Assembly: GCA_946611635.1 (NCBI GenBank)
Contig: CAMODW010000004.1
Span: 1 to 59,414 of the forward strand
Source of the DNA: an uncultured Bacillota bacterium
GTDB lineage: Bacteria > Bacillota_I > Bacilli_A > RF39 > UBA660
Direction of reading: 5' to 3'
DNA length: 59,414 nucleotides
Below the pieces are notes generated by a model. The model saw only the letters and a program-made list of their open reading frames with translations. It was not told where the DNA came from and ran no database searches. Position numbers and translations under genes: made by a program. Every line of letters starts with the position of its first letter. Positions within the stretch are counted from its first letter, which is position 1. Shown one piece after another: positions 50,278 through 54,847 of the stretch.

Positions 50278-50305
50278 ATAAAAAAAGAATGGCTAGTGCC
50301 ATCTT
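50278..50305 (-). terminator. terminator after the 715-aa paralog
   Basis: AAGATGGC-acta-GCCATTCTT followed by TTTTTTATTTT. Includes the stop. Confidence 0.65.
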
Positions 50306-52451
50306 AAATACTTAAACCATTTTCAATATCAAATTTATTATTTTCATTCATCACAGGTATTCTCGTTCCATCATCTGAAATTTGATATCTAATCGGAAAA
50401 CATGCTGCTTGTCTTTCTTTATTATATTCTAATATACTAGCCATTTTTTCATCTAATTCTTCTGGTGTAAATTCACCAGTTTTATCATACATTTCTCTAA
50501 TTGCAGACATAAGTACTTCCCCAGAAATCATATTATTAACATGATTAATAATATACTCACCGACTTCTAACATAAATTCCTGAACATATTCATTACTTAA
50601 TTCTAATTCAAATTCGAAATCTTCTAGTTCTTTATACTTTTCACTTAATTCTTTATATTTTTGTTTATCAATACTTTTAAAAAACTCTAACATTTTTTCC
50701 ATAAATTTTTGAGTAGATGTTTTATTCGCTTTAAAAATGGTATTCTGTAAATATTCAATATCACCATAAATATCCGTGACATTAAAAAATTTTGATTCTA
50801 ATTCTTGGTTATTTAACTTATTGACAATTGGTCTCATTCTATCAATGAATCGTCCAATATTACTAGCTGCTGTATCCATACTAGCCAAATTATAATAAAC
50901 AGTACTAAACCATTCATAACTTTCTTTATCTAATGTCTCTAAAGTTTTCATAAATTCCAGTAAACTTTCCTTAAAATCTTTTACTTTTTCCAACAAATCT
51001 GTATTGGCACTTTCTATTATCTCACTCTCTTCTTTTCTCATCCATATATTAGCTTTTTCATAAAATTCTTCTAAAGAATGAACAAACAACATCTCTTGAA
51101 CACCTAAAAAACTCAAACAATTATATATTCTTAAACCATTGTATTCATCCGGAGTCATTAATGCATGAACATAACTATCGTTATCCATTTCATTATCAAA
51201 AGTAGGATCAGAAATAAATACTCCATCAATATCATATTTAGGATCTATTAAATGAATCAACAAACGAGCATGTCCAGCAGTTGCATACTCTACATCATCT
51301 GGAATAACTAAAGCATCATCAGGCTCCTTTTCTAAAGTTATATCAACATTTACGGAATAATGAGACGACTTAATGCCTAATTTACTTAATAAATCTTCGA
51401 GTAAAGTTACGTATCCTACACATACCATATACTCTCCATCCATGACTTTATATAAATCTCTAGATTCAGATTTATCATCGGGATTTTCTTTATATTCTTT
51501 AAAATTTTTAGTAACATTGTATGCAAATAGAAATTTTTCTAATGGGCTCAAATTCAATGCCGGTCTTATCATCTCTATTAAACGTTTTTCATATTTTACA
51601 TAATCTTTAATAGAATAATCTTCTGAATCTCCTACCCCAATTTCAATATCATAATCTAATACTTCTAAATGACTAAAAATATATTCATTAAATTCATTTT
51701 TAAAATCATAACTATCATAATCTTTAACATCAACTAAAATACTATTTCCTTTTCCTAATTCCTTCAATCTTTTAATAACTTTAAAAATATTATCAAAATC
51801 ATTTGATTTAAATTCTATTTTTGCATTATCATTTAAAAATTTAATATTTTTAATTTCTTCATCAGATAAACTTCTATCTATCTTAAGATATGTACTTCCA
51901 CATAAATCTTCATAAGATGAATCTAAGACAAGTTTTCGTTCTACATTATAACAAATTTTAGAATCAAACACTTCACTAATCTCTTCATCAACTTGATAAG
52001 TTTTTATTGAATCAATACTAGAAACTTTTAATATTTCATAGTCTTCTTTTGTTAATGAATACGGTTGATCATAAGAACCAAGTATCAATTCATTAATATG
52101 CGTATTTTCACTTAGTGCTTTAATAATTTCCTTTGTTATAAAAGGATCTTCCAAACTAAAAATCTTCTGGTCTACATTACGACATATTTCCGTAACTGCT
52201 GCAAATACTTTATCTTTATTAGATTCAAAATACTTGCCGTCAAATCCCAAATAATTACCAGATAAAAAATCGCCAACAACAATAGGATGTGCTGCATCAG
52301 TAAAATGCCATCTAGTATTATTATTTATTGTTGCAATAGGATCAACTTGTATGCCGCTAAAATGATAATTTTTTAAATTAGACAACAATTCTTCAATAGT
52401 TAAAGAATTTGGTTTTGTTTTATCCGAATCAAATATGTTAACATCTCTCAT
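50304..52451 (-). CDS. large cytoplasmic protein with a central transglutaminase-like Cys-His-Asp core (paralog 1)
   Basis: ATG at 52451 lies 5 nt after AGGTGA. No signal peptide or TM. GEYMVCVGYVTLLEDLLSKLGIKS ... AGHARLLIHLIDPKYDIDGVFISDPTFDN. Confidence 0.6.
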   Translation of the reverse strand: MRDVNIFDSDKTKPNSLTIEELLSNLKNYHFSGIQVDPIATINNNTRWHFTDAAHPIVVGDFLSGNYLGFDGKYFESNKDKVFAAVTEICRNVDQKIFSLEDPFITKEIIKALSENTHINELILGSYDQPYSLTKEDYEILKVSSIDSIKTYQVDEEISEVFDSKICYNVERKLVLDSSYEDLCGSTYLKIDRSLSDEEIKNIKFLNDNAKIEFKSNDFDNIFKVIKRLKELGKGNSILVDVKDYDSYDFKNEFNEYIFSHLEVLDYDIEIGVGDSEDYSIKDYVKYEKRLIEMIRPALNLSPLEKFLFAYNVTKNFKEYKENPDDKSESRDLYKVMDGEYMVCVGYVTLLEDLLSKLGIKSSHYSVNVDITLEKEPDDALVIPDDVEYATAGHARLLIHLIDPKYDIDGVFISDPTFDNEMDNDSYVHALMTPDEYNGLRIYNCLSFLGVQEMLFVHSLEEFYEKANIWMRKEESEIIESANTDLLEKVKDFKESLLEFMKTLETLDKESYEWFSTVYYNLASMDTAASNIGRFIDRMRPIVNKLNNQELESKFFNVTDIYGDIEYLQNTIFKANKTSTQKFMEKMLEFFKSIDKQKYKELSEKYKELEDFEFELELSNEYVQEFMLEVGEYIINHVNNMISGEVLMSAIREMYDKTGEFTPEELDEKMASILEYNKERQAACFPIRYQISDDGTRIPVMNENNKFDIENGLSI

Positions 52452-52479
52452 AGAATTCACCTATTATAAGTATAACATA

Positions 52480-52504: not shown

Positions 52505-52620
52505 CTACATAGTCTTTACATCTGCAATTTTTAAATAGAAATATAATGGGTATTCTGCCAAAATCAAAATTTTTTCTTATAGAATTTATTAAATACCTTT
52601 CATAACTAACTAATCACTAC
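52491..52620 (-). pseudogene. relic of the 3' end of der (about 40 codons), left by a segmental duplication
   Basis: Translates to [40 protein letters not shown], against the Der C-terminus [39 protein letters not shown]. An in-frame TGA lies immediately upstream. DNA is colinear with 54887..55015. Confidence 0.85.
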
Positions 52621-52678
52621 CAATTCACATTAATTATCTTACACTAATGCTGTTATAATTTATAGTTATAGCAACTTA

Positions 52679-54847
52679 CTACATACTAATATTCATATTA
52701 TCTATATCAAACTTATTAAGATGATCTGAAATAGGTACTTTATCATCTTCAGTTATTTTATATCTTACTGGAAAACGTGGTTCTTGCCTAGCTTTATTAA
52801 TATACATAACTTTATTTACTTCTTCTTCTAACTTGTCATCTGGTACCCCATAACACTTACTATATAATTCCATAAGAGCAGCTTTATACTTTTCACCAGA
52901 AACTTCATGATTCATATTATTAACTACATATTCACCAAAATCAAACATAGCACTAGATATAAAATAATCATCAGGAATAAAGTTATATTCGTAGACATCT
53001 TTATATTTATTATAGAAATAATCATATTTCTTATAATCTAAATATTTTAAATACTCTATAAAACTCTTTATAAAATCTTTTTGAATATTAACTTTGTCTT
53101 TCAAATATTTATTTTTACCATCATTAAAAGAATCTACAACAAGCCTTATACGATATAAAGTATTCTCTAATTCCGGATTATAATGACTCTTTAAGTATTC
53201 CATTTCTCTTTTTTCAAAATACTTCATATTAGAAGGCACAAATTTGGCATTTTTTAAATTACCAAATAATAAAATGACATTATTATACTCATTTTCATCA
53301 AATTCTTTTAATTTTTCTATATATTCTAAAAACAATTCACTAATGGCATGAGTGTATTCTTTTTTAGTTGCTGCACTATATTCTTTATCTATTTTTTTAA
53401 TATTACTAGTCATCCAAAAGTTCGCTTTAGTATAAAACTCATCAATAGTTTTAGAGAAGAATACTTCTCCAATCTTTTCTCTAGAATAGAAACTTGATCG
53501 ATAAATTCTAAGAAACTCCTCTTGAGTCATTAAAGAATAATTATAAGTATTAATCTCCATAACGTTATCCCAAGTAGGATCAGCATAAAATATTCCGTCT
53601 ATACCATATTTAGGATCAACAAGATGTACCATAAGTCTCATATGTTCTTCACGGCCAACCTCCATTCCTTCAGGTGTAACTTCCGCATCCAAAGAGACTT
53701 TACTAAATTCATTTACCACGCCTAGAGTGATAAGATCACTTTCAATTCCTAATTTATCAAGTAAATCTCTAAGCATCTCCGCATAACCGACACAAACCAT
53801 ATATTCGCCATCTAAAATTCTATATAAATCTCGAGCTGCCCAAGTATCTTCTGGATTTTCTTTATATTGTTTATATCTTGTTACAACACTATAAGCAAAT
53901 AAATATTTTTCAAATGGACTTAAATCATATGCATCTTTTATTAAATCATATAATCTTTTCTCATAATTATAATAATCTTTAATAAGATATTTAGAATCAT
54001 GTTTTTCATCATTATTTGGCATAATAACAGTTATATTTTTATCTATTAATTCTGGATGTTTGTCTATAAAAGCATTAAAATCATTTTTATAACTACGTCC
54101 TTTAATAGGTCTTAGTTTAATATTTATCTTAATATCCCTGTTTTCTTCCAAATAATTTATTACTTTCAAAACATTATCATAATCGGTAACGCCTACAAAT
54201 TCTACTTCGCAACCTTTTTTCAAATATTTTAAGTTTATTATTTCTTCATCAGATAAAGGCGTATCAATTAGAAATCGATCACACTTTGATAAAGAGGAAT
54301 AAGTATAATTATATATTAAGCATCTACTATCATTACAATAAATCTTACCATTAAAAATATCCCTTATTTCTGGAGCTGCATCTGCAGAATAAATAGTTTC
54401 TATAGAAGAATCAACTATAATATCATATATTTCTTTAGTTAAAGTATATTTTCCATCATTACTACTAAGATATATTGCTTTTATATTAGAATTTTTGCTA
54501 ATTGCTCTAATAAAATCTTCTCGAATAAAATCATCTGCTAATATTATATGATCACTTTTAGTAGTAGATAGAATTCTAAATAATTGTTCATCTATTGCTT
54601 CTTTATTTTGTAAATAGTATTTCCTATCAAAAGATAGTATATTTTCCTCATCTAAAACCCTTTCTAAATAGGAAATAACATGTTCATCATCATTATATCT
54701 TATTATAAATTCTCCTTTTTGATTTTTTCCACTAAACTTACCATTAAGTAACAAAGCAAAAACAGGTTTATTAAAATCTTTTAATTGTCCTATACTTAAA
54801 CTATGTGCACCAAAAAAAGGAGCATCAAAAGCACTAGTCTCTATCAT
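52679..54847 (-). CDS. large cytoplasmic protein with a central transglutaminase-like Cys-His-Asp core (paralog 2)
   Basis: 722 aa. RBS AGGTGG. GEYMVCVGYAEMLRDLLDKLGIES ... EEHMRLMVHLVDPKYGIDGIFYADPTWDN. Colinear with paralog 1 through to the C-terminal FP(I/V)RY..NKFDI motif. Confidence 0.6.
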   Translation of the reverse strand: MIETSAFDAPFFGAHSLSIGQLKDFNKPVFALLLNGKFSGKNQKGEFIIRYNDDEHVISYLERVLDEENILSFDRKYYLQNKEAIDEQLFRILSTTKSDHIILADDFIREDFIRAISKNSNIKAIYLSSNDGKYTLTKEIYDIIVDSSIETIYSADAAPEIRDIFNGKIYCNDSRCLIYNYTYSSLSKCDRFLIDTPLSDEEIINLKYLKKGCEVEFVGVTDYDNVLKVINYLEENRDIKINIKLRPIKGRSYKNDFNAFIDKHPELIDKNITVIMPNNDEKHDSKYLIKDYYNYEKRLYDLIKDAYDLSPFEKYLFAYSVVTRYKQYKENPEDTWAARDLYRILDGEYMVCVGYAEMLRDLLDKLGIESDLITLGVVNEFSKVSLDAEVTPEGMEVGREEHMRLMVHLVDPKYGIDGIFYADPTWDNVMEINTYNYSLMTQEEFLRIYRSSFYSREKIGEVFFSKTIDEFYTKANFWMTSNIKKIDKEYSAATKKEYTHAISELFLEYIEKLKEFDENEYNNVILLFGNLKNAKFVPSNMKYFEKREMEYLKSHYNPELENTLYRIRLVVDSFNDGKNKYLKDKVNIQKDFIKSFIEYLKYLDYKKYDYFYNKYKDVYEYNFIPDDYFISSAMFDFGEYVVNNMNHEVSGEKYKAALMELYSKCYGVPDDKLEEEVNKVMYINKARQEPRFPVRYKITEDDKVPISDHLNKFDIDNMNISM

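Follow-up and report, generated by a model that had tools for sequence, protein, structure and literature searches.

Two neighbouring genes on the minus strand of an AT-rich genome fragment encode proteins of some 720 amino acids (aa) whose centre is supported, by conservation, structure modelling and homology, as a transglutaminase-like branch of the papain fold with an intact Cys-His-Asp core. The fragment, 59,414 nucleotides (nt) of contig CAMODW010000004.1 from an uncultured Bacillota bacterium (G+C ~26%), is referred to here as the window. Gene B (52679..54847, minus strand, 722 aa) lies next to der, and gene A (50304..52460, minus strand) follows it, running for 718 aa from the GTG at 52460 or for 715 aa from the ATG at 52451. 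The best explanation, to which we give a probability of about 0.6, is that A and B act as accessory cytoplasmic cysteine hydrolases whose variable flanking domains choose the substrate, and that the second copy came to stand behind the first by a route other than simple duplication in place.

The core assignment rests on the agreement of three independent lines of evidence. In the papain/transglutaminase core the Cys sits at the N-terminus of a helix, and a His and a polar residue (Asp) follow on antiparallel strands (PMC10318531). An alignment of 53 diverse homologues, reaching down to 21% identity, keeps all three residues invariant. In gene A they are Cys347 (codon TGT, 51420..51422), His397 (CAT, 51270..51272) and Asp418 (GAT, 51207..51209, within the motif DPTFDN), and the same alignment columns hold Cys352 (53792..53794), His402 (53642-53644) and Asp423 (53579-53581) of gene B, all on the minus strand. 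S305, Y314, R334, V346, D406, Y409 and D422 of gene A are invariant as well, and both catalytic motifs are kept in 268 of 295 relatives. The AlphaFold2 model of gene A, built on the same alignment and read through its DSSP strings and search summaries, has a predicted local distance difference test score (pLDDT) of 94.6 and a predicted template modelling score (pTM) of 0.84. It puts Cys347 at the first residue of helix 347-360, His397 within strand 394-406 and Asp418 at the very end of strand 411-417, so that the helix-opening Cys, the Cys-His-Asp order on the strands and the fold similarity to solved members are all found in the model.

The third line is homology to solved structures. A profile of the core alone recovers 9crn_A, the Streptococcus pyogenes TglA ('transglutaminase-like domain-containing protein'), from the PDB sequences at E 3.6e-8, with Cys347 aligned to the Cys of VCNGYA, His397 to the His of HAWN and Asp418 to the Asp of DPVFDN, as part of a shared DPxxDN. 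The top Foldseek matches of the gene A model in the PDB are the same TglA structure (E 5.9e-4), the endoisopeptidase PeiP (8z4f, E 3.8e-3) and LapG (4fgo, E 1.8e-2); further matches include a transglutaminase (4xz7), NAT1 (2ija) and a putative protease (3kd4). Pfam PF01841 (Transglut_core) is matched by 7 of the 53 family members at E <= 0.01, and one member, P0084, reaches 25.7 bits, above the gathering score of 23. Together, these results support the original prediction, made from the letters and their translations, which had read a transglutaminase-type Cys-His-Asp centre in both proteins and had proposed conservation of the three residues across homologues as a check.

The flanks of this core resemble nothing as closely. 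Gene A comprises an N-domain (51585-52460), the core (51126-51584) and a helical C-domain with a terminal beta-hairpin (50307-51125); limits transferred to gene B through its alignment with A give 53957-54847, 53498-53956 and 52682-53497 for N-domain, core and helical C-domain. The N-domain, of ~290 residues, is modelled as a beta-rich start followed by ~25-residue beta/alpha units, and folds with a pLDDT of 93.6 when taken alone. Some of these units look by sequence like a leucine-rich repeat (LRR), and a leucine-rich-type N-terminus had indeed been suggested at the outset. That suggestion is not supported. LRR Pfam models find no match in A or B at E <= 1, nor in any of the 53 members at E <= 0.01, and Foldseek comparison of the isolated domain with the PDB yields no significant neighbour (best E 0.02, TM-score <= 0.23) and no LRR protein among the 50 best matches; the curved beta/alpha solenoid of solved LRR structures is not borne out either. 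Searches of the PDB sequences with the N-domain profile, and with gene A by phmmer, return nothing below E 0.04. The full-length model compared with BFVD by Foldseek gives PeiP-like matches and weak giant-virus LRR/F-box matches (prob 0.6-0.8). Because the LRR models, the PDB profile search and the isolated-fold search are all negative, the N-domain is best treated as an alpha/beta domain of no assigned family.

The C-domain, of ~270 residues, consists of long helices and closes in a conserved beta-hairpin bearing FP.RY and NKFD; the originally described helical C-terminus ending in FP(I/V)RY and NKFDI is thus seen in the sequences and in the model alike. For this part Foldseek returns only generic helical-bundle matches, and it is here that the 715-aa forms carry ~100 residues more than the commoner ~620-aa forms. 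The whole-chain pTM of 0.84 suggests that the three parts are packed into a single body, which would restrict access to the active site.

Curated libraries offer no name for the whole. Neither A nor B has a match at or near the curated cut-offs of Pfam and NCBIfam, or any match in PHROGs, and PADLOC (PADLOC-DB 2.0) reports just two marginal matches, at E 0.0017 and 0.034, to helical regions of Cas proteins. These were judged spurious. A Pfam HTH_Cmi2_C match at gene A residues 598-650 (21.3 bits, cut-off 27) was likewise set aside as noise, being found in 1 of the 53 members. All database copies of the family are unnamed or called 'hypothetical protein'. The original prediction had been unable to place the overall architecture, and the searches support that view: the three-domain arrangement matches no described family and is a multi-domain form within a known superfamily. 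One family member, P0243 (3162 aa), holds the whole three-domain module in mid-protein, at residues 1035-1627, and a Pfam scan finds no domain anywhere in it, for which reason it was set aside as uninformative. Either a genuine fusion or a read-through in gene calling could account for it.

Genes A and B are intact and co-directional, and their products are colinear paralogs with 36% identity over 656 aa (E 3e-127) and 55% identity at the nucleotide level. Identity per domain is 33% in the N-domain, 49% in the core, 25% in the first C-terminal part, 22% in the insert and 35% in the last 90 aa. The initial description of divergent N-termini with a well conserved centre and C-terminus is therefore right about the centre and wrong about the C-terminus taken as a whole. 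Its motifs are all present: GEYMVCVGY(V/A) occurs in both proteins, the second core motif reads GHARLLIHLIDPKYDIDGVFISDPTFDN in gene A and EHMRLMVHLVDPKYGIDGIFYADPTWDN in gene B, and FP(I/V)RY and NKFDI stand at the C-terminus. The real start of gene A is probably the ATG at 52451 (715 aa) rather than the GTG at 52460 chosen by the open reading frame (ORF) finder, because the database copy P0001 has 715 aa and a Shine-Dalgarno sequence, AGGTGA, lies just ahead of the ATG.

Both proteins are acidic (isoelectric point 4.55 for A and 5.06 for B) and, in keeping with the first description, hydropathy reveals no transmembrane (TM) segment or signal peptide in A or B; the one hydrophobic stretch is the buried catalytic helix, on which the highest 19-residue Kyte-Doolittle means fall (1.37 in A, 0.88 in B). 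None of the 295 collected family proteins has an N-terminal hydrophobic segment. By these sequence measures A and B are soluble cytoplasmic proteins.

How widespread is such a protein? A full HMMER search of 1.84 billion representatives, clustered at 50% identity, puts the family at 2445 clusters with E <= 1e-3, of which 876 reach E <= 1e-30, and most family clusters are 600-720 aa long and match end to end over the three domains. All 323 relatives in reference genomes (323/323) come from metagenome-assembled genomes of gut 'Bacilli', 'Tenericutes' or 'Mycoplasmatota', with rabbit, mouse, chicken, ruminants and people as source hosts; Candidatus (Ca.) Coprovivens and Ca. Onthousia, Bacilli incertae sedis, are among them. 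Within the window's genus 19 of 27 genomes carry the gene, and sampling of the bacterial family to which that genus belongs found it in 19 of 81 genomes, every one from another genus, while a class-wide sample has it in 9 of 300 genomes, all 9 within that same bacterial family. The taxonomic survey that had been suggested thus shows a protein family restricted to, and patchy within, one family of uncultured small-genome gut Bacilli. No homologue was found in IMG/VR, among INPHARED phages or among PLSDB plasmids.

Where it occurs, the gene decays and changes fast. Several copies in the genus, family and class samples contain internal stops. Elsewhere in the genus there are a tandem pair with two TAG stops in one copy (G100:C37:6830-10002), a fragment with 11 stops (G082:C94:11467-11976) and a split copy (G094:C16:8765-10957), and decay therefore seems frequent at this locus. 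The der and thrS genes of the closest relatives share 90-93% identity with the window's copies, whereas for the homologue beside der the identity to gene B is no more than 44-56%. Nonsynonymous divergence (dN) is 0.314 for the family gene against 0.054 for der in the comparison with L086, and 0.509 against 0.055 with L085, so that amino-acid change runs 6-9 times faster than in the adjacent der over the same genome pairs. Only dN ratios were used for this comparison, as synonymous divergence (dS) is near saturation. The core is the slowest-changing part of the gene.

The original description of a tandem pair of paralogs also implied that one gene had been duplicated on the spot, which the phylogeny does not support. 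In the tree A groups with P0002, P0003 and P0004, and B with P0090-93 and P0023, both groups with high support; forcing A and B together as sisters costs a delta lnL of 357.6 and is rejected (p-AU 6e-47). A and B are neither sisters nor recent local duplicates. The position directly downstream of der is the gene's usual place in the window's genus. There an orthologue of A, P0002 (61% identity), is found in L088, and orthologues of B, P0090-92 (55-56% identity), in L086/L087, and single-copy der-adjacent genes are of the A type in L088 and the P0003 contig and of the B type in L085-L087. In the 218-nt spacer between B and A (52461..52678, minus strand) lies a decayed, non-coding copy of the der 3' end, here called the relic (~52527-52609), followed by a copy of the junction with der stop, T-run and -10-like elements (52461-52526). 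The relic matches the window's own der tail at 46 of 50 nt (E 2e-16) and at 84% over 83 nt.

A simple tandem duplication in place would leave two co-directional genes side by side, as seen here, and the der 3' relic would then mark the duplicated unit. Such an origin is nevertheless very unlikely, given the separate clades, the rejected sisterhood and the fact that both genes have nearer relatives elsewhere (61% and 56%) than in each other (36%). The relic, although non-coding, is also much better conserved with respect to der (84% of nt) than A is with respect to B (55%). The account we prefer has the second copy, A, entering or persisting along with a fragment of the der 3' end. On the simplest reading, an A-type gene with a der tail attached would have been placed by recombination behind a resident B-type gene.

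Comparison of gene neighbourhoods, another survey proposed at the outset, covered 79 loci. Neighbours differ by subclade and include der, prfB, rpsD, ackA or an ABC-F gene. In relatives the der-thrS interval also carries variable cargo, either a GH3 gene (L085) or a trio, and with GH3 or the trio in the same place the interval looks like a variable hotspot. The trio, which lies downstream of the homologue at L002 7896-12620, at six other loci and on the P0003 contig, comprises a 445-aa protein of no assignment, a 768-aa AAA_5 ATPase whose long N-terminal part is coiled, and a DUF7192 protein. Neither the trio nor the other variable neighbours gave anything significant in PADLOC.

As cysteine hydrolases, A and B would work through the thiolate of the Cys that opens the core helix (Cys347 in A, Cys352 in B). 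The His of the next-but-one strand (His397/402) would activate it and would itself be oriented by Asp418/423 of the DPT(W/F)DN motif. The thiolate would attack an amide carbonyl to form a thioester, most likely resolved by water, which would make the enzyme a protease, isopeptidase or amidase. The alpha/beta N-domain (~290 residues) and the helical C-domain (~270) may pack on the core and, as its fast-changing partners, probably select or gate the substrate.

Several points weigh against this account of function and origin. PF01841 has no match in A or B even at E <= 1, and the link of the two proteins to that family is transitive only, because the direct matches come from distant members. The fold and triad evidence fits hydrolysis, transamidation, deamidation and acyl transfer alike. 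No universal partner gene or candidate substrate emerged from the 79 neighbourhoods. The dN/dS values of 0.4-0.7, against 0.05 for der, are rough, since dS approaches saturation in a genome this rich in AT, and dN/dS does not tell relaxed constraint from diversifying selection. As to origin, when positions 72-218 of the spacer are aligned, the der-A junction of L088 (79% over 147 nt) comes out only a little ahead of the window's own der-B junction (74.7%), and with so small a margin an old duplication with differential loss, and with constraint or conversion acting on the relic, could also have produced the pair.

Could the chemistry be modification of proteins rather than cleavage? A glutamine deamidase or a transamidase (cross-linker), with translation factors as possible targets, would share thioester chemistry and fold with true transglutaminases and with papain-fold deamidase toxins. 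The transglutaminase 4xz7 and NAT1 2ija are among the fold matches, and subclade neighbours are often translation genes (der, engB, prfB, rpsD, ABC-F, thrS). Animal transglutaminases, however, have a GQCWVF active-site motif in which Trp follows the Cys, and the active site here reads MVCVGY, without that Trp. Microbial PF01841 members were predicted to be for the most part proteases (Makarova 1999, as cited in PMC10318531). Translation-gene neighbours are common by chance in genomes of ~1 Mb, and no one neighbour is conserved family-wide, which leaves modification an unlikely reading. A non-catalytic scaffold that uses the transglutaminase fold for binding only, as Rad4/XPC or menin do, could be suspected from the appearance of menin (3re2) among the fold matches, over 468 columns. 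That match is poor (rmsd 28, prob 0.54), and a dead scaffold is extremely improbable because the triad is invariant in the 53-sequence alignment; the wide retention of both motifs among the 295 relatives also speaks against it.

A further candidate is a component of a conflict system, that is, a sensor-protease directed against phages or competing strains, with the N- and C-domains as recognition modules and the core as effector. The accessory, patchy distribution, the pseudogenised copies, a dN 6-9-fold above der that is concentrated outside the core, the keeping of two divergent types in tandem and the variable cargo of the der-thrS interval (GH3, or the 445-aa/AAA_5/DUF7192 trio) would all suit such a role. 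Yet PADLOC has no significant match for A, B or the variable neighbours, the viral, phage and plasmid collections hold no homologue, the genes next to the pair in the window are housekeeping ones and neither an NTPase nor a nuclease accompanies the pair. The conflict role is accordingly rated as quite unlikely. One doubtful form of it would be a single-protein conflict module of a new kind in small-genome gut Bacilli: a cytoplasmic transglutaminase-fold protease whose structurally novel, rapidly diversifying N- and C-domains sense, for example, phage proteins, and whose divergent types pass between lineages at the hotspot downstream of der and are sometimes stacked in tandem.

Among known proteins, the cysteine-hydrolase reading finds its nearest comparison in S. 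pyogenes TglA (9crn) and PF01841. The cores are homologous, with VC.GYA, the His and DP.(W/F)DN aligned, and TglA is the best Foldseek match too. It differs in having 379 aa, of which ~105 residues align, and in lacking any counterpart of the 290-aa N-domain and the 270-aa helical C-domain; a literature search on S. pyogenes TglA found no paper on its function. The pseudomurein endoisopeptidases PeiP/PeiW (8z4f) and the LapG/BTLCP proteases (4fgo) share the transglutaminase-like fold and use a Cys-His-Asp triad for peptide or isopeptide hydrolysis. Those enzymes, however, are either extracytoplasmic or carried by phages, and what they cleave is cell-wall or adhesin material, whereas A and B have other accessory domains, and the export signal and periplasmic location typical of LapG/BTLCP are absent from A, B and the 295 relatives. 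Animal cross-linking transglutaminases (EC 2.3.2.13) flank their core with beta-sandwich and beta-barrel domains, unlike the alpha/beta and helical flanks of A and B, whose motif is (Y/F)MVCVGY. Papain-fold glutamine deamidases and transglutaminases, and arylamine N-acetyltransferases of the Peptidase_CA clan, have the core topology and thioester chemistry in common with A and B (PMC10318531), NAT1 being a weak fold match, but show no sequence-level match and carry other accessory domains. The window's own genome encodes a third transglutaminase-like protein (L084 1384-2289, minus strand, contig C30), 301 aa long and membrane-anchored through a TM segment at its N-terminus. With canonical matches to Transglut_core (40.4 bits) and DUF553, it is of the ordinary extracytoplasmic type and probably the counterpart of TglA.

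What makes the family matter is that it is large (at least 876 clusters), confidently foldable and unannotated, with a clearly active-looking catalytic centre. Genome-reduced gut Bacilli have little room for dispensable genes, yet this one is accessory, fast-changing and sometimes doubled. Once the substrate is identified, hundreds of 'hypothetical proteins' would gain a function, and what comes to light could be either a regulatory protease peculiar to this lineage or a defence-type module of a new kind.

The remaining features of the locus lie on the minus strand, in the order engB, two pilin-like genes, der, gene B, the spacer, gene A, a terminator-like hairpin, the thrS promoter and T-box, and thrS. 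Upstream of engB, at 58099-59412, a frame that runs past the window end encodes a protein of at least 424 aa, for which a Pfam/NCBIfam search gave no match. The pair stands, as first described, between der and the thrS T-box. On its upstream side der (54887..56209 in the ORF list) flanks gene B, and an extended -10-like element read from the sequence, TGATATAAT (54865..54873), falls between the der stop and the Shine-Dalgarno sequence of gene B (AGGTGG), where it may have a promoter-type function. The junction copy in the spacer contains TGTTATACT (52469-52477) and TATAAT (52463-52468). Directly past the gene A stop comes the terminator-like hairpin with its T-run (50288..50303). The T-box leader of thrS (50044..50227; Rfam RF00230, E 5.7e-16) scores 73.5 bits, below the Rfam gathering score of 93, and a default Rfam scan of the window therefore misses this element, which forms the downstream boundary of the locus.

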